Part shown: piece after piece, positions 36,699 through 61,510 of the stretch | Numbering within the stretch: the first letter of the stretch is position 1 | Layout: each line of letters opens with the position of its first letter | Assembly: GCA_947627055.1 (NCBI GenBank) | Contig: CANQUS010000009.1 | Location: 1,029-65,028, forward strand | Length of the DNA stretch: 64,000 bases | Source: an uncultured Clostridia bacterium | GTDB lineage: Bacteria; Bacillota; Clostridia; Oscillospirales; Acutalibacteraceae | Direction: 5' to 3' | Made by a program: the position numbers and the translations under genes | Notes under the pieces: model-generated | Databases searched by the model: none | The model's input: only the letters and a program-made list of their open reading frames with translations | Told to the model about the DNA's origin: nothing

Positions 36699-36775
36699 GG
36701 GGCATTAGCTCAGTTGGTTAGAGCAACCGGCTCATAACCGGTCGGTCCGGGGTTCGAGTCCCTGATGCCCCACCA
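36699..36775 (+). tRNA. tRNA with anticodon CAT (elongator Met, or Ile2 if lysidine-modified)
   Basis: Cloverleaf read by eye: acceptor GGGGCAT/ATGCCCC, D-arm AGCTCAGTTGGTTAGAGC, anticodon stem-loop ACCGG-CTCATAA-CCGGT, T-arm GGGGTTCGAGTCCC, encoded CCA. The D-loop looks Ile-like, so identity is ambiguous. Confidence 0.9.
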
Positions 36776-36830: not shown

Positions 36831-37009
36831 GTCCATGTTTTGAAAATATCCTTGATCAGCACTTGCCCGCAAAAATCTCTCATTTTATCCCGATAGACTT
36901 AATTCATTTGAACGAATAATGTGCTTTTGTATCGGCATTTTTATTTACATCAAGTCGAATATCACCTCATAAATAAGCAAATAATATTTTTGAAAGTGAG
37001 GTTTTGACT

Positions 37010-37678
37010 ATGTTTAAACATGAAAAAATGCTATTCCATCCGGTCGAGGTTGAAAGAGCGAATCCGCAATATGCAGTGCTTATGCAGGAACAGCTTGGAG
37101 GTGCGAACGGCGAGTTGAAAGCAGCCATGCAGTATATGTCGCAAAGCTTCAGAATAAAGGATCCCGAAATAAAGGATCTGTTTCTTGATATTGCGGCAGA
37201 AGAACTGGGACACATGGAAATGGTAGCGCAAACTATCAACTTGCTCAATGGTCATGATGTTGACGCACATTCGGTACCGAGCGGAGAGATCCAGACTCAC
37301 GTATTATTAGGTCTTAATCCGGGACTTATAAATGCCTCGGGTTACTCATGGACGGGAGATTATGTATCGGTGACCGGCGACCTGTGCGCCGATCTGCTTT
37401 CAAATATTGCGTCGGAGCAGAGAGCAAAGGTTGTTTATGAATATCTTTACAGACAAATAGACGATAAAAAGGTTAAAGAAACAATAGACTTTCTGCTGAA
37501 TCGCGAGGAAGCACACAACGCCATGTTCAGAGAGGCGTTCAATAAGGTACAGGATACCGGTTCAAACCGTGATTTCGGTACAACAAAAGCCGCCAAAATG
37601 TATTTCAGTATGTCCGAGCCGTCACCTTCGGATAATTCCTTTGCGGAAGCAGATGTCAAAGCTCCTGCTTTTAAATGA
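37010..37678 (+). CDS. manganese catalase family protein (full length)
   Basis: Begins MFKHEKMLFHPVEVERANPQY...GGANGELKAAMQYMSQSF...EELGHMEMV. ATG 37010 lies after AAGTGAGG. Confidence 0.85.
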   Translation: MFKHEKMLFHPVEVERANPQYAVLMQEQLGGANGELKAAMQYMSQSFRIKDPEIKDLFLDIAAEELGHMEMVAQTINLLNGHDVDAHSVPSGEIQTHVLLGLNPGLINASGYSWTGDYVSVTGDLCADLLSNIASEQRAKVVYEYLYRQIDDKKVKETIDFLLNREEAHNAMFREAFNKVQDTGSNRDFGTTKAAKMYFSMSEPSPSDNSFAEADVKAPAFK

Positions 37679-49767: not shown

Positions 49768-52323
49768 TTATTTTTTGCGGAGATTTTTCTTTTTGCCGCC
49801 GTTGCCGGTATGCAGCTTTACTGAGGATTCATCTCTCACGGACGGGTTTTTCTTTGCGGCATTAGTGGAACGCTGTGCCTGTGACTGACTTTGTGAGATA
49901 CTCTCCGGTGCGTTCTTGCCGAACAGCTTCTCGAATCGTGACTGCGGCTCCTCCGCTTTCGGCTTGCTATCGGAAACAGAGGCGTTGTCTGAAACGTCAT
50001 TCAGCTTAGGAATAGAGCTGCCGGGTTCTCTGTTATGAATATCCTGCTTATCACCTTGAATAGGCTTTTCAAATACAATACCCTCGTCAGTCTGTTCCTT
50101 TTGACTATTGTCAACGCCCTCAGCTTCGGCATAATTTTCCTCAGACGACTCGTTCCCTGCGTCTTTAGCAGTGTCGTTTTTAACTCCGAACAGCTTTTCA
50201 AATCGTGATTCGGATTTATCAGCATTTGCATTTACTTGAACTGTCAAAGGTACGTTTTCGTCACCGACGGTTGGAGAATTATTCCCAAATAGCTTTTCGT
50301 ATCTCGAAACTGACTGTTCGTCCTTATCCGATGCCTTTTGCGGAATAACTGGCGCAGACGCGGCAGGCGGAGTAACGTTCTTGGGAATAACAGGAACGGT
50401 TGTTCGAGTTTCCGCTTCGTCAGTTATGGAGACTGCGGCTTCCCCTTTTGCTTCAGACGGCTTTTGCTCGGTGGCAACTTCTTCCTCCGGTTCAAAAGCG
50501 TCCTCGTCGATCTCAGGAACTACGGCACGCTTTATCTTGCCTAAGAAAGATTTAAGGGAGCTTTCCTTTGTATCATGAGCATTATTCTGAGCGACAGGCT
50601 TTTCGGGTTTCGCTTTTGTAGGGATTTCCGTTGCCTGAATTTCCTCTGTTGCTTCTATTTCCGTCTGTTCAAAGGTGATCTGTCCCTCGATAGGTTGTCT
50701 TTCCCCCGACATCTCGTCCACATCGTTTGAGACAGCCTCTTTCTCAGCGGACAGCTCGTTCACAGCTTCTGCTTCTGAAGCTTCTTCATTCGATTCCAAA
50801 AGATTTTTTGTTTCATTGGGAACAGTAATAGTTTCTGTCGTCAGATTGATGCCTGCTTCCTCCGGAGTTATCATAACAGGCGCAGTCACATCGGCAGTCA
50901 TAAATTCAACCGAGCCGGGAGGTGTGTACCTAGGAGCCTTAGGAGCAGCAGTATCAGCAGACTTTTTGCTTTTTGCGGTCGAGCTGTATATCTCTGCCTT
51001 TTCCGTCAATGGTTGGGTTTCAAAAAGCTCAAAGTCCTCAGATGTATATTGGGAGGATTTTTGCGGTATTTCCTCATCCTTTTTTCCCCCCTGCTGTCCT
51101 TGCAGCGTGGCAGCCTTACTTTCCTCAAACTCCGTGGCAGCCTCTGAGAGCTTTTTGCTTACTTTGGAAATGTTTTCGTCCGCTTCCTCGGCAAGAAGTT
51201 TATTTTTCCTTGCACGTTTTGCGAGTAAAGCTATCAGAACAACAAAGAGAACTGCGCAAACCGCGGCAGTTGCGATAGTGATAATTTTAAGATCGGTTAT
51301 CTCCTTTGAGTTATCCTCATGTACTGCAGGCGGATCGACGTCGGTGAACGATACGCTTTTCATAACTGCCTCAATAATCGACATTTGATCGGCAGTAAGT
51401 TCCTTTCCGCGCGTCTGGAGCGTTATGGTAATTTTTTGTCCGTTGACAATAGTGTAATTCTGAATACCCGCTATTTCGTTATTGTCGTCATCAGTCGAAT
51501 GATAGTTAAGGCTGAGGTATAGAGCGTCACCGTACTTTTTCTGGGTACAGGAGGTATATTCATTCTGTTCAGTCAATGATTTTGTGATGTCGATCAGATC
51601 CTTGTCCTCAAGCTCTGTAAAGTTGTTGATGGTTTTACTGTCATCGTCCTCTGTCATGGTGACAGTTATATCATATGAAAAGTCCTCAGGAGACGCCTTG
51701 ATATACATATTAGATTTTCTTAATGACTCAACAGCCTCTTTTTCTGTCATATTGAATACCTTGAGCGCCTTTTCGTTCTGTTCCCCGCTCCTCAATATTG
51801 CGTAAACATCATTCGGGAGAGCAATGTTCATTTTGAGTTGTGTCAGCCTATAGTTTATCAGGGGGATCTCAGAGTTTTTATCATTCGATGAGGTCTTTGA
51901 ATTTTCTGAGGATCCCTCGGACCTGCTGCTCGACTCCTCGCTTGGTTCCTCACTCGGCTTCTCGCTTGATTCCTCACTCGGCTCCTCACTTGATTCCTCA
52001 CTCGATTCCTCACTCGATTCCTCACTCGATTCCTCACTCGGTTCCTCACTAGGCTCCTCACTTGATTCCTCACTTGGTTCCTCACTCGGTTCCTCACTGT
52101 ATGTTGTTTCAGTCGGTACAAAGTATCCATAGGAATTTAGGGTATAGTATGTTATATTGCCGTATTCGTCCTCTATATACGCATTACCCTTTGCGTCATA
52201 TTTTATGTTTTCCTCTACATACGGGTCATAGCCTGTAACGCTGTCGGGTTCGGCAAAAACCGTAAAGGACAGCACACTTGACGCAATAATAAGTGACGTT
52301 AAAATTGCCGTAAAACGCTTCAT
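49768..52323 (-). CDS. hypothetical single-pass membrane protein with SEEP repeats and a long disordered tail
   Basis: 851-aa ORF. In order: signal peptide, SEEP/SEES tract, ~200-aa globular region, TM (IITIATAAVCAVLFVVLIALLA-KRARK), ~470-aa low-complexity tail with three SR[FY]EKLFG motifs, and a basic C-terminus. Confidence 0.7.
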   Translation of the reverse strand: MKRFTAILTSLIIASSVLSFTVFAEPDSVTGYDPYVEENIKYDAKGNAYIEDEYGNITYYTLNSYGYFVPTETTYSEEPSEEPSEESSEEPSEEPSEESSEESSEESSEESSEEPSEESSEKPSEEPSEESSSRSEGSSENSKTSSNDKNSEIPLINYRLTQLKMNIALPNDVYAILRSGEQNEKALKVFNMTEKEAVESLRKSNMYIKASPEDFSYDITVTMTEDDDSKTINNFTELEDKDLIDITKSLTEQNEYTSCTQKKYGDALYLSLNYHSTDDDNNEIAGIQNYTIVNGQKITITLQTRGKELTADQMSIIEAVMKSVSFTDVDPPAVHEDNSKEITDLKIITIATAAVCAVLFVVLIALLAKRARKNKLLAEEADENISKVSKKLSEAATEFEESKAATLQGQQGGKKDEEIPQKSSQYTSEDFELFETQPLTEKAEIYSSTAKSKKSADTAAPKAPRYTPPGSVEFMTADVTAPVMITPEEAGINLTTETITVPNETKNLLESNEEASEAEAVNELSAEKEAVSNDVDEMSGERQPIEGQITFEQTEIEATEEIQATEIPTKAKPEKPVAQNNAHDTKESSLKSFLGKIKRAVVPEIDEDAFEPEEEVATEQKPSEAKGEAAVSITDEAETRTTVPVIPKNVTPPAASAPVIPQKASDKDEQSVSRYEKLFGNNSPTVGDENVPLTVQVNANADKSESRFEKLFGVKNDTAKDAGNESSEENYAEAEGVDNSQKEQTDEGIVFEKPIQGDKQDIHNREPGSSIPKLNDVSDNASVSDSKPKAEEPQSRFEKLFGKNAPESISQSQSQAQRSTNAAKKNPSVRDESSVKLHTGNGGKKKNLRKK
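51928..52098 (-). repeat. in-frame 12-nt tandem coding repeat (S-E-E-P/S)
   Basis: About 14 consecutive units of ttcctcactcg(a/g)-type sequence. Confidence 0.85.
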
Positions 52324-52709
52324 AATGATTACCTCCGTTTCTTCGGCTTATGGACTTATGTTTAATATTCATGTAATATTCATTATGTTATTATTATACT
52401 TTATGTTGTCGAAAAAGACAAGTCCTTGACGCTTTTAGTTTGTATCAAGTAATTTTTGGAGCATTATCTGGCGTTTTTAAGCGTCGCAAACGAGTGTAGG
52501 CTATATAGTTATGACGTCTAACGCTTGATGTATATATACACTAATTAAAGCAGCCAACCTCAAAAGAAGTAAATTTTAAATTTCCGCCAAGCCATTTTAA
52601 AAGGGTTTGAGGTTAATTTATACAATAGTAACAAGCTTGTAATTGAAAAAGTTGTTTAAAACATGTATACTATGTACGTAATTTAGCGTATAGAAGGACG
52701 GTGAAGCTT

Positions 52710-53252
52710 ATGGCTATAATAAATAAAAAGAAGATTTTAATTTCCGTTGTTTTTCTTTTCGCTGTTATTTCCGTCACCTCTGTTATTGTCATTATCCTTG
52801 TAAGAATGGGGTTTGGTATATCCCCATCGAAAAACGAATCTAAAAAAGATTTTACTACCGATGAGATTGTTTACACCATAATCGACAAGCTCGATTATAC
52901 GTCACTGTCAAAAGTAAGCTCGGATAATATTTCAAAATATTATGACATAGATGACATCCTGATCGCAGACGCTACGGTTTATATTTCAAGCAAAGACGAG
53001 TCCTTTTCTGAAATCTCCTGCTTTAAGCTGACAGACAGTTCCAAATATCAACAGGTTGAAACCGCTATTAAAAATCATCTCAGCTTCAGCAATGTAAATC
53101 TACAGGATTTTAACCCACAGGAAAGCAAAAAGCTTAACGAAAGTAAGATAGAATACTGTGAACCGTATGTCCTAGTAATTGTCTCGGATAACAGCAGCAG
53201 TGCCGCAGCAATATTCAAGGATTTAGTTACGGGAAAATCGGAGACCGCTTAA
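52710..53252 (+). CDS. hypothetical membrane-anchored protein (DUF4358-like, tentative)
   Basis: AT-rich ORF with an N-terminal TM. ATG 52710 (MAIINKKK); the track ORF starts at GTG 52701. Confidence 0.55.
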   Translation: MAIINKKKILISVVFLFAVISVTSVIVIILVRMGFGISPSKNESKKDFTTDEIVYTIIDKLDYTSLSKVSSDNISKYYDIDDILIADATVYISSKDESFSEISCFKLTDSSKYQQVETAIKNHLSFSNVNLQDFNPQESKKLNESKIEYCEPYVLVIVSDNSSSAAAIFKDLVTGKSETA

Positions 53253-53311: not shown

Positions 53312-53410
53312 GCGTACCTGATAATAAATAAAAATTTTCGCTCTTTCTCGATGCTATGAAAGTACAGGTATTTTTTATCATAGATTTTAAGGAGATAGGA
53401 GTGATATTGA

Positions 53411-54841
53411 TTGAAAATTGCTGCCGCATATATACGAGTATCTACCGACGACCAGATCGAATATTCGCCCGCCTCTCAGCTTGAAAAGATAAGGGAATAC
53501 GCACAGCGCAACGGATATATTCTGCCGCAGGAATATATTTTTGCCGACGAGGGGCTGTCAGGCAGACACACCGAAAAGCGTCCGGAATTTAACAGAATGA
53601 TAGGCATCGCAAAGCAAAAGCCAAAGCCCTTTGACGCTATACTGCTATGGAAGTTCAGCCGTTTCGCGCGAAACCGCGAGGACAGCATCGTTTACAAATC
53701 CATGCTCCGCAAGCAATGCGGTATAGACGTTATTTCCATCTCCGAAAATATTGGTGATGACAAAATGTCCATACTCATCGAGGCAATGATTGAGGCAATG
53801 GACGAATATTACTCGATAAACCTCGCGGAGGAAGTAAAACGAGGCATGAATGAGAAGGTCAATCGCGGAGAAGCCATTACAATTCCCTCATTCGGTTACG
53901 ATATTAAAAACGGAATGTATGTACCGAACGCAGAAGCGACTCCTGTTGTGCAAGAGATTTTTAATGATTTTTTGGACGGTATAGGTATGAGAGCTATTGC
54001 CGCCAAGCTTAACGACAGGGGACTCCGCACAAGACGCGGAAACCTCTTTGAAAACAGAACCGTTGAATACATATTGAAAAATCCTGTTTATATCGGAAAG
54101 CTGCGCTGGACACCCGATAGAAAGTCCCGAGAAACCTTTGACATCTCCGACACAATGATAGTGGACGGCCGACACGAGGCAATTATTGACATGGCAACAT
54201 GGCAAGCGGTTCAAAGAAAGCTGTCATCATCACCAAAGGTCAAGTATATGCGCAGCAGCTCGCCCGTTGAGCCATTTATGCTTCAGGGTCTTGTAAGATG
54301 CAGTAATTGCGGCTCTACACTATGTATGTCTGCAAAGCATTCTTCATTGCAATGTCACGCTTATGCACACGGAAGGTGCAAAATATCGCACAGCATTACA
54401 ATAAAAAAAATCAATAAAATGCTTATAGAGTCGATTGAAAAGTCAGCTTTAACGGGTATCTGTAAAATCAATATAAACTTAAAATCAACTACGGTCAACA
54501 ACTCTCAAAGTATTATAAATACGATAGCTCGTGAACGCAAACGGTTAGAACGCATAAAGGATGCATACGAAAACGGCTTATATACTCTTGATGAGTTCAG
54601 GATAAAGCATTCCGAAATAGACAGTAAAATCGCTTTACTCGAGGGTGAATTAGCTGAAAAGCCCGACAAAGATCCGTACGCCGAACGCAGAAAGCTTAAT
54701 GATAAGAGCCTTGACATTATCCCCGCATTAAAATCCTCATCAACACCCGAGGAGGAAAAAAGCTGTTTAATCAAATCCTTTATTGAGAAGATAATATTTT
54801 ACAGAGCCGCTTGTGACTTGGACATATTTTTATACAGCTAA
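53411..54841 (+). CDS. large serine recombinase
   Basis: 476-aa ORF with catalytic-serine motif AAYIRVSTDDQ, a resolvase domain, a recombinase domain and a Cys-rich zinc ribbon (CSNCGSTLC...CHAYAHGRC), followed by a coiled-coil tail. Confidence 0.9.
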   Translation: MKIAAAYIRVSTDDQIEYSPASQLEKIREYAQRNGYILPQEYIFADEGLSGRHTEKRPEFNRMIGIAKQKPKPFDAILLWKFSRFARNREDSIVYKSMLRKQCGIDVISISENIGDDKMSILIEAMIEAMDEYYSINLAEEVKRGMNEKVNRGEAITIPSFGYDIKNGMYVPNAEATPVVQEIFNDFLDGIGMRAIAAKLNDRGLRTRRGNLFENRTVEYILKNPVYIGKLRWTPDRKSRETFDISDTMIVDGRHEAIIDMATWQAVQRKLSSSPKVKYMRSSSPVEPFMLQGLVRCSNCGSTLCMSAKHSSLQCHAYAHGRCKISHSITIKKINKMLIESIEKSALTGICKININLKSTTVNNSQSIINTIARERKRLERIKDAYENGLYTLDEFRIKHSEIDSKIALLEGELAEKPDKDPYAERRKLNDKSLDIIPALKSSSTPEEEKSCLIKSFIEKIIFYRAACDLDIFLYS

Positions 54842-55394
54842 AAAACATATCCTTTCACAGTACGGCGGTCCGGACGGAGAACTTGGCGCATCACTGCGCT
54901 ATCTCAGCCAGAGGTTTTCCATGCCTTATCCTGAGCTGAAAGCTATTTTAACGGATATAGGCACGGAAGAATTAGCCCACCTAGAGATGATAGGTGCGAT
55001 AGTCTATCAGCTCACGAGAAACCTGACGCCCGAGCAAATAGAAAAAGCGGGATTCAGCGATTATTTCGTTGACCATACTACGGGTGTTTATCCTCAATCT
55101 GCCGGAGGCTCTCCGTATACAGCAGCTTCAATGCAGGTAAAGGGCGATACTATAACCGATATACACGAGGATATGGCAGCAGAGCAAAAGGCTCGCAGCA
55201 CTTATGACAATATACTGCGATTCTGCGACGACCCCGATGTTATAGATCCTATACGCTTCTTGCGCGAAAGGGAAATAGTCCACTACCAACGCTTCGGCGA
55301 GGGTCTGCGAATTGCAACGGATAAGCTAGACAGCAAGAACTTCTACGCTTTCAACCCGAGCTTCGATAAATGTGAGGTCAAAAAGAAAAAGTAA
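54813..55394 (+). CDS. cotJC: CotJC-like manganese catalase family protein, N-terminally truncated relative to the family (possible pseudogene or split gene)
   Basis: QYGGPDGELGASLRYLSQRF...TEELAHLEM...REREIVH. The only available start is GTG 54813, which has no Shine-Dalgarno. An in-frame stop lies at 54792-54794. The usual MWxYEKKLxYPV N-terminus is missing. Confidence 0.7.
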   Translation: MTWTYFYTAKKHILSQYGGPDGELGASLRYLSQRFSMPYPELKAILTDIGTEELAHLEMIGAIVYQLTRNLTPEQIEKAGFSDYFVDHTTGVYPQSAGGSPYTAASMQVKGDTITDIHEDMAAEQKARSTYDNILRFCDDPDVIDPIRFLREREIVHYQRFGEGLRIATDKLDSKNFYAFNPSFDKCEVKKKK

Positions 55395-55416: not shown

Positions 55417-55770
55417 TTGCACAGCTCCGTAAAAAGTAGACAATAGAAAAAAGGGACCTCCTATGGTAGAATTAAAGAAGCAACCATAGGAGGTTTTAAT
55501 ATGTCGAAAAAATATCAAAACATTAAACAGTATGAAAACATGATATTAGAGTTAAAAAGCCAAGGATCCACACACAGAGAAATCGGAGAAAAACTAGGGC
55601 TTAGATATATACAAGTAAAAAAATGTGTAGAACGATATAACAAAAGGCAACGCATGATAAAAGCAGGAAAAGAACTACACAAAAGAGGACATCCAAGTAC
55701 AAAAGAAGGAGAACTGCCACCGTCAATCCAGCGGTTGACAAATCTTACACAGATCTATATAATTTTATAA
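55417..55770 (+). mobile_element. IS3-family (IS150-like) remnant: putative left end plus a truncated OrfA
   Basis: The TG-initiated end tgcacagctccgtaaaaagtagacaat resembles IS150-group terminal repeats (recalled from memory, not checked). The 89-aa ORF has an HTH (STHREIGEKLGLRYIQVKKCV) and a KRGHP motif, then breaks off. No OrfB/DDE part is present. Confidence 0.55.
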
Positions 55771-55860
55771 GAGCAAAAAAACTGTATTCAAGCGGCACGG
55801 AAAGCATTATATTGATGAAATGAAACACTATCATTGAAGCAAAGGCAGGCAACGTCCGAT

Positions 55861-56646
55861 ATGAAGATTATTGATTTCCATACCCATATTTACCCTCAAA
55901 GCATAGCAACGAAAGCCACGCAGAGTACCTGCGATTTCTACAATCTAACAACAGATATTGTCGGCACGACACATGAGCTCCTTGCCGAAGGTCATAAAGC
56001 GGGTATCTCAGGTTTCGTATTATTGCCGATCGTTATAAAACCTGAGCAGACACGCCATATCAATCAGTTCATTATTGAGGAAACAAAATCACACTCGGAA
56101 TTTTATGGCTTTGGCACTGTTCATGCCGCTATGGATAATATCCTCGAAGAAATTGAATTTATTAAGAGGAGCGGTTTGAAAGGGGTTAAACTCCACCCGG
56201 ATATTCAACAAACAGACATTGACGACCCGAGGCTGTTTCCTATGTATGACTTGCTGCAGGATGATCTTCCTATTCTCATTCATTGTGGAGATCCCCGTCA
56301 TGATTATTCTCATCCCCGCCGCCTGCGGCGAATACTTGACACATTCCCAAGACTGCAAGTCATAGCCGCGCATTTGGGAGGATGGTCATTATTTGAGACA
56401 GCTTTAACATATCTGAAAGACACGAACTGCTTTTTCGACATATCGAGCTGCTCCCCTTTTATGACGTCCGAGCAATTGACAAGGTATATTTGCATTTATG
56501 GGTCAGATCGAGTATTATTTGGTTCTGATTTTCCACTCTGGTCGCCAAAGAAAGAGGTGGATACATTCCTTAAGCTTCCCTTAAATTTAGAGGACAAAGA
56601 AAAAATAGCCTGTCGCAACGCGCTTGAGATTTTAAAAGAGGTATAG
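55861..56646 (+). CDS. amidohydrolase-2 family metal-dependent hydrolase
   Basis: MKIIDFHTHIYP... TIM-barrel hydrolase signature. The track ORF starts at TTG 55834. Confidence 0.75.
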   Translation: MKIIDFHTHIYPQSIATKATQSTCDFYNLTTDIVGTTHELLAEGHKAGISGFVLLPIVIKPEQTRHINQFIIEETKSHSEFYGFGTVHAAMDNILEEIEFIKRSGLKGVKLHPDIQQTDIDDPRLFPMYDLLQDDLPILIHCGDPRHDYSHPRRLRRILDTFPRLQVIAAHLGGWSLFETALTYLKDTNCFFDISSCSPFMTSEQLTRYICIYGSDRVLFGSDFPLWSPKKEVDTFLKLPLNLEDKEKIACRNALEILKEV

Positions 56647-56856: not shown

Positions 56857-57270
56857 TTATTCGTTTTCACTTAAAAGCTCTCTTATGCGGTCGATCTTCC
56901 CCGAAAGATACAAATATCCGAGCAGTGCTTCAAAAGCGGTCGCGGAATGATAGTCGGCGACGGTCGCGTTTTTGGGGACGTGTTGAGTGTGAGCATTTCT
57001 GCCTCGCTTCAATACGTCTCTTTCTTCCTCAGTGAGGTAAGGGAAAAGCTTTTCAACAAGCCTTGCCTGAGATGAGCAGCGTACAATGGACACCTTTTCC
57101 TCATTTAGCTTTTTTACGGGTCTGTTCGCCTCGCAGACAAGCCTTTCGCGCACAAAAAGGTCATAGACACCGTCACCCAAAAACGCCAGGGTGAGCGGAC
57201 TCATACTTTTAGGTTCGCAGGGCGAATTTTCAAGTCTTGACATCATAACGCTCCTATTTTGGAAACACAT
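56857..57270 (-). CDS. mrnC: mini-ribonuclease III
   Basis: 137-aa ORF with LAFLGDGVYDLFVRERL. Confidence 0.85.
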   Translation of the reverse strand: MCFQNRSVMMSRLENSPCEPKSMSPLTLAFLGDGVYDLFVRERLVCEANRPVKKLNEEKVSIVRCSSQARLVEKLFPYLTEEERDVLKRGRNAHTQHVPKNATVADYHSATAFEALLGYLYLSGKIDRIRELLSENE

Positions 57271-57382
57271 ATCATTAACAAGCGCTTCCCGAAAAATCTA
57301 TTGATATTATACCTCTGCCGCCGAATATTGTCAAACTGAGTGTACGACTATGCGGCAAATCCATCAAAGCTCTCAAAAATTG

Positions 57383-58258
57383 TTAAACTGATTTATTTAA
57401 GGTTTTCACACCTTTTTCAAGGACAAACGGTACTATCGCAAGAACAAAATATGTCCCATAAGCAACATATGCCAATGAACTGAAGCTCAGCTTTTCGTTA
57501 AGAGTACCCGACGCATAAAAATCGACAGACAACTTCCACATACATTGAATAACGATTATAAAACTGAAAAATATAATAGAAGCCGCGATGAGTATCGCGT
57601 CAGACTTTCTGAATTTAAATAATGAAAAGCTGCTGCGCCCGCTCAGATCACCTCCTCTGGCACGAAATGAATCCGCAGTATCGACCGAGGTCTCGAGCGA
57701 CCATGTTATGAGCGATGACAGAACCTTTATACCGCCCTTTATATCATCAATAATAGTATCCTTGTTATAGATTCCTATGGCTCGCTGGGTGTTGTTTATT
57801 TCAACTGCTCTGCGGCGGTATAGAGGTATAAACCTCAGAGACATCGACAAAAACAAAGCAAGACGGGGACTGAATCGCCCGAAAATATATGTAACCCTAT
57901 CCGAGGTCATTATCTCTGAAAAGGAAACGAACCAGATCATGACAGACAGTATCATTAAAGCGTTATCCGCTCCGTACATTAGAGCCTCAAGCGTTACAGC
58001 CCTGCCGTTGACGAAAAACAAAACCGTTTCACCGTTTCGGGAGAATATCGGGTTTATTACCGTTATCAATATAAAAATCATTATCCAAACGCAAATAGCT
58101 TTAAGGGGCATTTTCCGAAAAACGGAAACGTAAAACAGAACCGCTCCGACAAGAGAGAGCGCCTCGATAACCGGATTCTGAATAAACATAGCGATCATCA
58201 CGATCGACGCGAAATAAACAAAAACCGATATAGGATTATATTCCGAAAATGATCTCAT
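57383..58258 (-). CDS. energy-coupling factor transporter transmembrane (T) component, EcfT/CbiQ family
   Basis: Polytopic ORF with EcfT coupling-helix region (ARG-type motif FRARGGDL). The likely ATG at 58256-58258 overlaps the upstream stop as ATGA. Confidence 0.8.
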   Translation of the reverse strand: MRSFSEYNPISVFVYFASIVMIAMFIQNPVIEALSLVGAVLFYVSVFRKMPLKAICVWIMIFILITVINPIFSRNGETVLFFVNGRAVTLEALMYGADNALMILSVMIWFVSFSEIMTSDRVTYIFGRFSPRLALFLSMSLRFIPLYRRRAVEINNTQRAIGIYNKDTIIDDIKGGIKVLSSLITWSLETSVDTADSFRARGGDLSGRSSFSLFKFRKSDAILIAASIIFFSFIIVIQCMWKLSVDFYASGTLNEKLSFSSLAYVAYGTYFVLAIVPFVLEKGVKTLNKSV

Positions 58259-60210
58259 TCCGCCATACCCTTTCCAAGCGTCGTTGTATACACCCACTCC
58301 ACGACGTCGCCGTCCTCAAGCTCATAGCCCGAACAGCCCACGCTCGGTGTTTCGCCGTTTACCCTATATATCCAACCCGAAAGCTCTCCGCAGTCAAACT
58401 CATACAGATAGTTTATACCCTTTATGTAAACAGTTCCAAATTCATTATCGTCGCTGCCGTCATAGTCAAGCTGAATATGATTTTTCTTTGCCGCGCTCAG
58501 CAAAACATCGAAAACAGTGTCTCCTTCATTGATCGAAATTTCCGTATCGCTGAGAATAACTCCGTCTGACGGAATTTTATCGTTTTTGACATTTCCGACC
58601 GCTTCTTTGCATGATATTGACATAACAACCGCTGCGCTCTCGGCTTTACTCCCGCTTGAGGTTTCTCCGTAATATTGTTCCGCCGTTTCGATTCTGACAG
58701 TAAGAGCCGCGAAAACAAGAACAGCGAACATTACAACGAGCAGAATGAAATTTTTTCTGTTGAGCTTCCTTTTAATAATGAGAGCTGTAAGCGCCGCGAT
58801 AAATATTCCGACAATACAAAGTACAATAATCAGATTATAATCCGTATTGCTGTTATTATTGTTCATGCTGTTCTCGGCGGCTACTTCGCTCTTATCATCG
58901 CCTTTGGAAGATAATGATGCGGCAGATCGTAATGCCACTCCGCTTTCGTCGGACGTGATGCTTTTCGATGGCGCTGTTGACGAAATATCAGACAATGAAC
59001 TATCATCTATCGCTTTTGACGACGCTTGTGGCGATTTGCTTGATGCGCTTGAGCCTGCCGATGTTCCGTTAGAATTTGACGATGTTATATTTTGTTTGTC
59101 GGGGGCTTCTGTATCCCCGCTTGTTTGATTATAACTACTTTGTCCTGATGTGCCGTCCGATATTCTCGAAGCATTATCACTGCTCGGCTTCTCAGCGCTT
59201 GATTGCGGCGGCTTGTTTGTTGACGGTCTGCTTACAGTACCACTGACCTCACGCTCTATATTGTTGTCTACAAATTCAAAGAATGACGACTTCCCTTTTT
59301 CGTATCTCCATAGAGATATTAGTGAATAAAGCGATTGAACCGTAGCGAGATCGTTCTCAGCGCCGTCAAGCGTATGAGAAAAGCTCCCGTCGCTTTTGCG
59401 AAATCTCATAAGTCCGTCATACACCGTATTTCCGTTTTTTATAAAACGTCCGTCCGTTTTATAATTTATCTTCATAGTATTCAGCGCAAGCAGTACCTGA
59501 GCCGTGCTTTCAGCCGTTTCCGCACCGTAGCTTTTAAACGCGCCGCTTGTCTGCTGTCTTTGCGAGAGATACTCAATAGCCTTGTCCACAGCTGATTTAA
59601 CGTCGTTGTACTTATAATATCTCGCTAACGACTGTATCGCCGCAGCTGTAACATCGACATCGGAGCTTTGTGCCAATCCCCAGCCGCCGTCGGATAATTG
59701 GAGCGATAAAATCTCATTTATTATCTCATCACGCGTCATACTGCCGTAATATGAACCGCAGTCGAGCATTATCAGTCCGTAGATATAGCTCATCACACCG
59801 AGCTTACCTATCGTGCTGTTAAGCGCTGTATCTATATTGGGAGAAGTATAACCCATGGCAGTATATACTATTGCTATTCTTTGCTTATCCACAGCGCGGA
59901 GGTTACTCGTAGATGATGTAAAAGCATCGAGGGAACTCTTGCAGTTCGAGAAGTCAGGCTTATATTTATAGCGCGACAGGGAGATCGCATACCAGTCGGC
60001 AGCGCTGTTTCCCATATCAGCACTTATATCATCAACCAAGGATTGCACAGAGCCGTTATTCTTCCACCTTAATATATCGTCAATTACAGCCTCGACACTA
60101 TATGATCCTGCCTTAGCGGTCATGTAAAAATTGGCGGGAAGTATAAATCCCGCCAACATGATTGCAAGAAGTGTAATTGACAGCAATTTTCCTGCTGCAT
60201 TATTCTTCAT
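58255..60210 (-). CDS. surface protein: prenyltransferase-like alpha/alpha toroid, S/T linker, TM hairpin, DUF4430 (transcobalamin-like)
   Basis: 651-aa ORF. It has toroid repeats SDGGWG / TSGAFKSYG / SDGSFSH, two adjacent TM segments and a C-terminal DUF4430 pattern (GWIYRVNGE...Y.LEDGDVVEWVY). Confidence 0.7.
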   Translation of the reverse strand: MKNNAAGKLLSITLLAIMLAGFILPANFYMTAKAGSYSVEAVIDDILRWKNNGSVQSLVDDISADMGNSAADWYAISLSRYKYKPDFSNCKSSLDAFTSSTSNLRAVDKQRIAIVYTAMGYTSPNIDTALNSTIGKLGVMSYIYGLIMLDCGSYYGSMTRDEIINEILSLQLSDGGWGLAQSSDVDVTAAAIQSLARYYKYNDVKSAVDKAIEYLSQRQQTSGAFKSYGAETAESTAQVLLALNTMKINYKTDGRFIKNGNTVYDGLMRFRKSDGSFSHTLDGAENDLATVQSLYSLISLWRYEKGKSSFFEFVDNNIEREVSGTVSRPSTNKPPQSSAEKPSSDNASRISDGTSGQSSYNQTSGDTEAPDKQNITSSNSNGTSAGSSASSKSPQASSKAIDDSSLSDISSTAPSKSITSDESGVALRSAASLSSKGDDKSEVAAENSMNNNNSNTDYNLIIVLCIVGIFIAALTALIIKRKLNRKNFILLVVMFAVLVFAALTVRIETAEQYYGETSSGSKAESAAVVMSISCKEAVGNVKNDKIPSDGVILSDTEISINEGDTVFDVLLSAAKKNHIQLDYDGSDDNEFGTVYIKGINYLYEFDCGELSGWIYRVNGETPSVGCSGYELEDGDVVEWVYTTTLGKGMAE

Positions 60211-61183
60211 TTTTCTTCTTTCCTAAAACAAGAGCCGCGGCGAATATTACCGAGGTGAAAAATGCCGCAGCAAATATCGCTTTTTCGGAATCCCCCGTTG
60301 CGACCGCCTTACCGTCATTTCGGCTGTTTGCTTCGCTTGTCGACTCAACATTATCAGGCTTACTCCCCTGCGAAGCTGAGGGTACTTCGCTCTCGGGCTT
60401 ATCTGACGGTTCTCCGCTCTCGGGTACACTTGACGAGCTTTCAGACAAATCTGATGCGGTTATCTCTACAGAATAATCAGGTTCAAGACGAAGTATGAGC
60501 GGCATACCCTCATCACTTACTTTCTCTGCGGCAACACCATGACTGCCCTCGGTTATGTACTTATCATCGATCTTGACCGAGCCGTTATCATCGGTAATAT
60601 AATCCACCGTACCTCCATCATAGCTCCATGTTACCGTCATATCAGCTACGGGGTTTACAACCGTTGTCGGATCATAGTTGGAATCGTAAACAGTATCCTC
60701 GCTTGTAAACGTGAGAACGCCCTCGGATATTTTTGACCTATCGACAGTAGGGTACTGCATTCCCGCGCCGTACGGGTCGCCATAATAGAGGACTATGCTG
60801 TCACCATCGGAGAGGTTGTATCCGCTGACAGCATCGTTCGGCTCTATACCGTTTACCCTATACAGCCAACCATCCCAGCCGCCGAACGTTCCCTGAACAT
60901 CATTGTTGACCGCTGTTATCCATCCGTTTTCAACGCCGGTTATTGTTATATCGTCGCTCTGCTCGTCAAAATACATAAGCGCGTCCTGAACCGTAAGGCT
61001 TTCAGTGCTGTACGGAACAACGGCGGTATTATAGAAGAGATTCTCCTTTATCCCCTCTATTCTCAGGGTAATTTGCATCTCCTTTTCGTCAGCGGCAAAT
61101 GCGCTGACGCTCAACGTTCCCGCCGCGACCGCCGCCGCGAGTACCAAGCATAAAATTTTTCCCGCTTTTTTCTTTTCTTTCAT
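60200..61183 (-). CDS. secreted DUF4430 (transcobalamin-like) protein with C-terminal sorting signal
   Basis: 327-aa ORF with signal peptide, DUF4430 pattern (GWLYRVNG...YNLSDGDSIVLYY), a beta-rich domain, an S/E/P linker and VATGDS-TM-KKK. Confidence 0.7.
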   Translation of the reverse strand: MKEKKKAGKILCLVLAAAVAAGTLSVSAFAADEKEMQITLRIEGIKENLFYNTAVVPYSTESLTVQDALMYFDEQSDDITITGVENGWITAVNNDVQGTFGGWDGWLYRVNGIEPNDAVSGYNLSDGDSIVLYYGDPYGAGMQYPTVDRSKISEGVLTFTSEDTVYDSNYDPTTVVNPVADMTVTWSYDGGTVDYITDDNGSVKIDDKYITEGSHGVAAEKVSDEGMPLILRLEPDYSVEITASDLSESSSSVPESGEPSDKPESEVPSASQGSKPDNVESTSEANSRNDGKAVATGDSEKAIFAAAFFTSVIFAAALVLGKKKNEE

Positions 61184-61334
61184 TGTTTACATTCTCCTTC
61201 TTGAAACGACCAGTAAGAGAATGTTCATTCCCTATTATTACCGATCATTTCATAAATTTATAGATTCGGAAAATAGGGAAAACAAATAAAACCGATCGGC
61301 AAAACGCAAATCGGCACAGCATAAACAAGCGAAG

Positions 61335-61510
61335 TCCAGACCTCGCCCATTGCACTCTGTACTCTCCCACAAGCCCGAAAGTATCACAATACGGCTAATC
61401 AAGCGGCGAGCGACCCGACTTGACATCGGCGGTGTGCCGAAGCATACGGTAATGGCGGTTGCGCCGGATTCTCACCGGACTTCCCTCAGTTCCGCTTGAA
61501 GTTATTAACT
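61335..61510 (-). promoter_or_regulatory. cobalamin (B12) riboswitch
   Basis: The minus strand reads GAGGGAAGTCCGGTGAGAATCCGGCGCAACCGCCA...GT, the conserved core. A B12-box-like AAGTCGGGTCGCTCGCC lies at about 61404-61423. It sits between a TTGACC-17-TATACT promoter and the DUF4430 gene. Matched to the consensus by eye only. Confidence 0.7.

Follow-up and report, generated by a model that had tools for sequence, protein, structure and literature searches.

Genes that are interrupted by an intervening element and carry a serine recombinase with it are well known, the described elements being skin, SPbeta, vfbin and gin. The skin element of Clostridioides difficile needs a directionality factor (PMC5025042), excision of SPbeta needs a recombination directionality factor (RDF) under sporulation control (PMC4191935, PMC5499854), and for gin a serine recombinase together with a small cofactor suffices (PMC5595907). 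Split sporulation genes have hitherto been described as interrupted by prophages or foreign elements that are excised by the mother cell. Interruptions of the spore-coat gene cotJC by integrative elements have been recorded as well (Abe et al. 2013, as cited in bioRxiv 10.1101/2021.11.22.469490; for Laceyella sacchari, bioRxiv 10.1101/2022.02.25.481979), and in the accessible portions of these sources they appear as survey mentions in Bacilli, given without attachment (att) sites or a mechanism. Here we analyzed a stretch of 64,000 nt (the window) from contig CANQUS010000009.1 of an uncultured Clostridia bacterium, in which a large serine recombinase gene ends next to a cotJC gene that has lost its 5' part.

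The missing part of cotJC was found at a second locus, where it ends in an att site (attL) that shares a core with the site in the window (attR). Joining both sites in silico restores the gene in frame. In our view a phage integrase has probably been domesticated in this bacterium and rebuilds cotJC in the mother cell, the prophage itself having been lost. The junction in the window is composed of the following features:

53411-54841, + strand: large serine recombinase (phage-type integrase), 476 aa; open reading frame (ORF) and Pfam
54813-54866, + strand: spurious extension at the 5' end of the 193-aa 'Mn catalase' call, made up of the recombinase 3' end and an att arm in another frame; no ribosome-binding site
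54838-54898, + strand: attR, about 60 bp; from comparison with attL (L080) and the symmetry of the reconstructed attP
54847-54861, + strand: phage-side arm block of attR, ATATCCTTTCACAGT, recurring at -20..-6 on both sides of GG in attP
54858-54869, + strand: 12-bp core common to attL and attR, CAGTACGGCGGT; from comparison of both sites
54867-54868, + strand: crossover dinucleotide GG, placed by symmetry and not mapped; the gene-side arm lies to its right
54867-55394, + strand: cotJC 3' segment, beginning at the crossover within codon 31 and running to the stop; Pfam Mn_catalase and identity to an intact orthologue

The 476-aa recombinase ORF with its TAA at 54839-54841 had been described from the letters alone (here referred to as the sequence-only reading) and was borne out by ORF analysis and Pfam. 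It starts with TTG and is preceded by GGAG 9 nt upstream. The domains Resolvase (PF00239; 9.4e-27, residues 4-154) and Recombinase (PF07508; 2.2e-25) were detected, and Zn_ribbon_recom (PF13408) reached 22.4 bits, slightly below the cutoff of 25.3 bits. The N-terminal motif YIRVSTDDQ, read from the translation, holds the catalytic serine. PHROGs placed the protein in family 95 'integrase' (1.9e-111). Structural matches in the PDB were found to the C-terminal domains of A118 integrase (4KIS; residues 160-462) and to the catalytic domain of TP901-1 integrase. By its catalytic, Recombinase and zinc-ribbon domains and by the design of its att sites the protein classifies as a large serine recombinase, that is a phage-type serine integrase. 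All deposited phage integrases were less than 60% identical to it, the best one 48%.

The second ORF (54813-55394, + strand, 193 aa) overlaps the recombinase gene. Its sole start, a GTG at 54813 inside that gene, lacks a Shine-Dalgarno sequence and is preceded by an in-frame TAA at 54792-54794, all of which had been reported before and was seen again. Pfam Mn_catalase (PF05067; 4.2e-41) aligned residues 10-191 of the protein with profile positions 22-217 only. As the match begins at position 22, the N-terminal part of the family is absent from the window ORF, which thus is not a full-length CotJC/Mn-catalase. Intact CotJC orthologues are 205-208 aa long, start with MWVYEKKLEYPVRIKNPNPKLAKIIITQYGGPDGELG and share 93-96% identity. 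The alignment with these orthologues, which had been suggested for placing the breakpoint, was run and revealed 30 missing codons, MWVYEKKLEYPVKIKNPNPKLAKIIITQYG, whose residues are kept in all intact orthologues. DNA homology to the intact relative L010 (83% identity) begins at 54856, and 26 nt separate the recombinase end from the start of the cotJC 3' segment. Details of the sequence-only reading had to be revised accordingly. It had recognised cotJC from about 54837 onward, and with homology from 54856 and a crossover inferred at 54867-54868 the breakpoint was off by about 25-30 nt. Its estimate of 12-20 missing N-terminal residues was too low. Furthermore, 'AKKHILSQ', which it took for the first cotJC codons and which looks like 'AKIIITQ' of CotJC, is instead the phage-side att arm. 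This arm is identical to the gene-side arm at 19 of 30 positions, a resemblance that plausibly reflects binding by one enzyme.

Six independent metagenome contigs from the window species carried the same junction, and so did other species; the pattern is therefore not due to chance. The out-of-frame reading across the junction was also found in other split species (ORFs P0003 and P0088 in the alignment). A frameshift fusion of integrase and CotJC was considered and found no support. One could also suppose that the 3' fragment is expressed alone, starting at GTG 54813 or elsewhere, as a short Mn-catalase-like protein in which the recombinase plays no part. The ORF is callable and the fragment is under strong purifying selection, as this would predict. 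We nevertheless regard it as highly improbable: a ribosome-binding site is absent, the start lies within the integrase gene, the initial 18 codons come from integrase and att sequence in a wrong frame, and the 30 lacking residues are conserved in all intact orthologues. Moreover, such expression would not account for the selection acting on the integrase, the att arms and the 5' piece of 31 codons.

The 5' piece of cotJC is not in the window according to tblastn and motif searches, as the sequence-only reading had already stated. The only match was an unrelated, intact Mn-catalase paralogue at 37004-37678 (+ strand, 224 aa), a second copy that does not represent the lost piece and has 36% identity to CotJC of Bacillus subtilis; a tRNA-Met is located at 36699-36775. 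Searches for the att arms within the window gave chance-level matches only, and attL is absent from the 54.8 kb to the left and the 9 kb to the right of attR. A search with CotJB, in contrast, detected the partner locus. Here, a variant named P0182 showed the gene order LysM-cotJA-cotJB-cotJC(1-30) followed by foreign sequence (L080), with cotJA and cotJB directly upstream of cotJC (called genes with Pfam matches to CotJA and CotJB). Looking for the 5' piece next to cotJA/cotJB, as had been advised, was thus successful, and of the two fates that had been considered for the partner, located elsewhere or lost, the first one applies: attL with cotJC(1-30) lies on another contig of the species.

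In three samples (ERZ27249588, ERR14656751 and ERR14656748), P0182 occurred alongside contigs of the window species. Exact-sequence records placed the attL mini-ORF on an NCBI contig of 50,263 nt and the recombinase on one of 67,721 nt; these exact-protein records would fit one assembly with attL and attR on different contigs. Both cotJC halves were found in a single assembly of a sister species and, for the window species, in the same samples, and they join in frame. In addition, the P0195 cluster comprised 18 different attL-type 'Mn catalase' mini-ORFs of 33-57 aa from assemblies of Ruminococcus sp., Clostridiales and Defluviitaleaceae. Split cotJC is widespread and routinely mis-annotated.

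The attL sequence (L080) is ...ATCATAACG[CAGTACGGCGGT]ACTGACTGTGAAAGGATATTATTTTC..., the part to the right of the core also being written ACTGACTGTGAAAGGATAT (...ATCATAACG[CAGTACGGCGGT]ACTGACTGTGAAAGGATAT...), and that of attR in the window is ...AAACATATCCTTTCA[CAGTACGGCGGT]CCGGACGGAGAAC.... A short common core had been expected at 54800-54845; a core of 12 bp does exist, its position being 54858-54869. The left part of attL joined to the right part of attR in silico resulted in an uninterrupted, in-frame CotJC of 205 aa, which is collinear with intact orthologues and aligns from position 1 of NCBIfam ManCatBAC (1-199). The synthetic attB junction reads ...ATCATAACGCAGTACGGCGGTCCGGACGGAGAAC.... 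The reciprocal product, attR-left with attL-right, is an attP that is symmetric about GG (synthetic junction ...ATATCCTTTCACAGTACGGCGGTACTGACTGTGAAAGGATAT...). Its arms match at 20 of 30 positions, including the perfect 15-nt block ATATCCTTTCACAGT at -20..-6 on either side. The crossover was placed at this GG because the symmetry fits the attP design expected for serine integrases. The target corresponds to the DNA encoding the invariant QYGGPDGELG motif of CotJC, as seen in the orthologue alignment. With a partner attL, a common core and in-frame joining, the earlier proposal of an attR-type junction of a large-serine-recombinase system splitting cotJC was supported. In L012, L013 and L015 an A instead of G was present at 54860, which reduces the core to 9 bp; attL carried G in 4/4 contigs seen.

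In total, 39 relatives of the recombinase were obtained by an IMG/VR scan, with identities cited as 47-64%. Eleven of them (47-56% identity) were directly followed by cotJC beginning at residue 18-30, mostly at residue 25-30. Other relatives carried a free attP of like design, such as L034 with ATATCTTTTTGGAGTACGGTGGTACTTACTGTAAAAAGATAT and also L043. L034 is a tailed phage with genes for endolysin, Dit, minor tail and tape-measure proteins beside the integrase. In the sister phages L035, L036 and L057 the att core is flipped relative to the integrase gene. In L023 and L024 the integrase is convergent with the cotJC 5' piece, corresponding to the opposite orientation of integration, which matches the flipped core. 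The integrases of these five (L023, L024, L035, L036 and L057) share 62-64% identity. These comparisons establish, at the level of sequence, a phage ancestry of the integrase and a family that targets cotJC. In L024 a gene of the ImmA type with a HELGH motif was located beside the integrase.

Besides this position, at least two further insertion sites were seen within cotJC, at codons ~61-83 (L019, L022, L037, L078/L079 and L092) and ~170-178 (L021 and L032). The recombinases found there are of the large serine type as well (495-606 aa) and about 30% identical to the one in the window. L037 carried two elements in one cotJC. The cotJC insert of L021 (Clostridium leptum DSM 753) has a size of 4.2 kb and consists only of an Amt-PII ammonium transporter and the recombinase. 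Judging from these loci, elements have repeatedly integrated into cotJC in gut Oscillospirales, which makes the gene a hot spot that offers at least three sites and is used by several integrase families.

To the left of the integrase the window contains, in leftward order, genes for a DUF4358 protein, an 851-aa repeat protein, pyrC, pyrF and a pyridoxal phosphate (PLP) enzyme. Beyond these come recG, sigA, dnaG, a P-type ATPase, sugar-transport genes, an amylase and the alanine racemase gene alr. The housekeeping chromosome on the recombinase side thus spans at least 54 kb, and its first 10 kb left of the integrase were confirmed by an independent contig of 18.7 kb. Three integrase-proximal products were tested and no phage-family match beyond the integrase itself was obtained. 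On the other side, a terminator and tRNA-Ala(GGC) lie 130 bp beyond attL in the window species. In the sister species four que genes, a P-type ATPase and the same tRNA are found; by their motifs the four genes read as queF, queC, queE and queD. A third lineage carries genes for ferredoxin, maf, an rsmI-like protein (TP_methylase) and coaBC after attL. Intact relatives (closed genomes of the P. massiliensis type, L010 and L002) have an uninterrupted cotJABC, and in L010 the right flank of the window (mrnC, cbiQ and the 651-aa gene) directly follows cotJC.

The sequence-only reading had suggested a skin-like intervening element. A discrete element of this kind, a prophage or an integrative and conjugative element of more than 55 kb between direct attL and attR sites that includes the left part of the window, would agree with the location of the integrase at the edge beside attR, as in skin and SPbeta, and with its phage-borne relatives. 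It is, however, very unlikely in view of the gene content, since the left 54 kb hold dnaG, sigA, recG, alr, pyrC and pyrF without phage-family matches, tRNA-Ala or the que genes of the sister species come after attL, and in intact relatives none of these genes lies within 10 kb of cotJ. The DNA between the halves is housekeeping DNA on both sides, so that a foreign element to be excised as a circle was not found.

The split was then compared between species. In the sister assembly GCA_964385235.1 (CAYLOD01) attL is located on contig 27 (L017), and contig 9 (L091) shows the order DUF4358-integrase(85% identity)-attR-cotJC3'-mrnC-cbiQ. All four flanks are common to both species and the split is therefore older than their divergence. 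The synonymous divergence (dS) between the two split species was 0.34-0.81 and unsaturated. The ratios of nonsynonymous to synonymous divergence (dN/dS) for window versus sister species were:

integrase: 0.106
cotJC 3': 0.028
cotJC 5': 0.08
cotJA: 0.0
cotJB: 0.028
mrnC (comparison): 0.155
DUF4358 (comparison): 0.19

The att arms of both species differ by one base, and frameshifts or stops were present in no part of the split system. Against an intact orthologue, the cotJC 3' segment had 97% amino-acid and 83% nucleotide identity (dN 0.018, dN/dS 0.009), and the ratio was no higher than in intact pairs. Between the two split species, purifying selection acts on all parts of the system. The alternative that had been offered, a scar, is contradicted by these data. 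A dead scar would mean that a prophage in cotJC was destroyed by rearrangement, leaving cotJC permanently inactive and the recombinase as a relic. The lack of adjacent prophage genes, of a directionality factor and of a rebuilt form would suit it. Yet the integrase, both cotJC pieces, cotJA and cotJB have dN/dS values of 0.0-0.11 at a dS of 0.5-0.8, the att arms are conserved with one mismatch, and frameshifts and stops are lacking, all of which makes a dead scar unlikely.

The reading that we favour is a domesticated integrase. According to this proposal, a temperate-phage integrase targeting the 'QYGGPDGE' coding stretch of cotJC would have been kept by the host after loss of the prophage. 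In the germ-line chromosome, cotJA-cotJB-cotJC(1-30)-attL is located at one locus and DUF4358-integrase-attR-cotJC(31-205) at that of the window. In the mother cell, integrase and a directionality factor would recombine attL with attR at the central GG, yielding an in-frame cotJABC operon and an attP beside the integrase gene. The cotJ operon is expressed in the mother cell of B. subtilis. Sporulation timing, directionality factor and topology are inferred here, the RDF-gated reaction in the mother cell being drawn from the characterised systems (PMC4191935, PMC5499854, PMC5025042, PMC5595907). Without the factor attL and attR would be inert and the forespore would keep the split arrangement, which would also explain the split state in every assembled contig.

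Since housekeeping DNA lies inward of both sites, the rearrangement would have to be either a large inversion, if the sites are inverted, or the excision of a large circle, if they are direct. In the latter case the circle would carry essential genes, a loss that might be tolerable for a terminal cell. The observed flanks would be explained most simply by one ancient inversion with one breakpoint inside the prophage, which would leave the sites inverted. We tentatively put forward, as possible though somewhat doubtful, that the distant att sites are inverted and that the mother cell rebuilds cotJC by integrase-driven inversion of a segment including dnaG and sigA. Both at the junction and in the partner loci, GC skew tracks the direction of the genes without a polarity break and does not settle inversion versus excision.

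Inverted sites would formally also make a latch of integrase and RDF. A reversible ON/OFF inversion switch of cotJC in a subpopulation, operated by integrase and a cofactor as phase variation and untied to sporulation, could build on this and on the fact that the observed contigs are all in one state. We consider such a switch improbable, given that its target is a spore-coat operon needed in the mother cell only (established for B. subtilis) and that no contig in the ON state was found. The characterised split sporulation genes, furthermore, all rearrange in the mother cell (PMC5595907, PMC4191935, PMC5025042).

Several points weigh against a rebuilding of cotJC by the domesticated integrase. 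The rebuilt CotJC was absent from a collection of 15 billion proteins by exact look-up, and neither an attB nor an attP form of the window species was found in assembled data. No directionality factor was detected near either att site and no conserved small-gene candidate adjoins them; a 71-aa ORF beside the integrase in another species has no counterpart in the window. The assignment of attL to the window genome follows from co-occurrence in samples, exact-protein records and the sister assembly, not from one closed assembly, and the two sites lie on different contigs. The promoter assignment upstream of the integrase, described below, is weak as well. RDFs are without a common sequence family (PMC11795197), so that the absence of an RDF as judged by homology means little. 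Scans of JGI metagenomes with attL/attP right-arm and attR/attP left-arm patterns yielded nothing and are uninformative, the species being probably absent there. A scan of viral contigs for the att arm gave one unrelated high-GC match only.

Two further features are located upstream of the integrase:

53355-53401, + strand: promoter-like block and ribosome-binding site, with TATGAAAGTACAG at 53355-53367, a variable spacer, TCATAGATT at 53378-53386 and GGAG at 53398-53401
window 52701-53252, + strand; L091 161-745; L004 6540-7085, - strand: DUF4358 membrane-anchored protein, three species, 50-78% identity

Alignment showed that the two promoter-like boxes are kept in the sister species, the spacer between them being variable. 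In our reading the CATA-type -10 resembles mother-cell sigma-E/K promoters, with an atypical spacing to any -35 element. The DUF4358 gene adjoins the integrase in three species and its product was considered as a cofactor, which was rejected because of the N-terminal membrane anchor and the lack of a phage-family match. One of the three species has the gene in inverted orientation and the phage relatives lack it; probably it already lay beside the breakpoint in the ancestral chromosome. Next to it, the 851-aa protein (49768-52323, - strand) contains tandem repeats of the SEEPSEE type and a central membrane segment and belongs to no Pfam or PHROG family.

On the other side of cotJC, an ORF of 89 aa at 55501-55770 (+ strand) contains a helix-turn-helix (HTH) and resembles the N-terminal part of an insertion sequence (IS) transposase OrfA (Pfam HTH_29, weak). 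All metagenome contigs of the window species end at about 55496, where a repeated element therefore probably begins. Relative to L010, this ORF and an amidohydrolase gene (55834-56646) are inserted between cotJC and mrnC. The mrnC-cbiQ-DUF4430 cluster (window 56857-61506) is downstream of cotJC in L010 and in the window, upstream in P. massiliensis (L018/L073-L077), and upstream and inverted in the P0176 species (L084). By gene order, the cotJ neighbourhood is repeatedly rearranged in this genus. Possibly the P0176 species, with attL (L084), is identical to the P0003 species, with attR (L004).

In the system described here the element is gone, but its enzyme and both att sites persist under selection in at least two gut species. 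This implies that the host depends on a site-specific rearrangement of its native chromosome for a spore-coat protein, and offers a clean natural case of a domesticated integrase. As a programmed event in sporulation, such a large inversion, or excision of essential genes, may be the first of its kind. For the annotation of metagenome-assembled genomes it matters that cotJC halves are called pseudogenes or odd short 'Mn catalases', and the cotJC hot spot supplies new pairs of att sites and integrases.

A close parallel is skin with SpoIVCA in sigK (B. subtilis, C. difficile). Both systems have a serine recombinase at the edge beside the 3' fragment, and in both a mother-cell gene in two pieces joins in frame across a short common core. 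In contrast to the window, where no element is recognisable, housekeeping genes lie inward and the gene is cotJC, skin is a discrete defective prophage of 14-48 kb that is excised from sigK. With SPbeta and SprA-SprB in spsM the window shares a phage integrase reused for the rebuilding of a developmental gene at an att core (PMC4191935, PMC5499854), SPbeta being an active phage of 134 kb. The gin element in gerE of Bacillus cereus ATCC 10987 (GirC/GirX; PMC5595907) is a precedent for intervening DNA that need not be a prophage. It is, however, a bounded foreign element of 28.6 kb which is excised, whereas the intervening DNA at the window locus looks like native core chromosome. In Anabaena heterocysts, XisF of the fdxN element likewise is a large serine recombinase that rebuilds a gene in a terminally differentiated cell. 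There, the excised element measures 55 kb and the phylum is another one, and the window recombinase stayed far below the XisF equivalog cutoff (NCBIfam NF041201; 102 bits versus 375).

The siphophages in IMG/VR (e.g. L034 and L043) resemble the window in having integrases with 47-64% identity, the same integration position in cotJC and an attP of identical design, in which AT-rich inverted arms of 14-16 nt surround TACGGnGG and GG is central. Unlike the window copy, which has lost all phage genes, these phages or prophages are complete. No description of an inversion-type or element-less rearrangement in sporulation was found in the literature searched, which is no proof of absence. Compared with the cotJC interruptions mentioned for Bacilli, the present case belongs to the Oscillospirales (Pseudoruminococcus group) and combines defined att sites and a site-targeting phage family with the lack of an element. 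New with respect to all these systems are the att sites defined in gut Oscillospirales together with a phage family devoted to the cotJC site there, the retention across species of the integrase and both sites, which enclose native housekeeping DNA now that the element has been lost entirely, and the possibility of a programmed large inversion.

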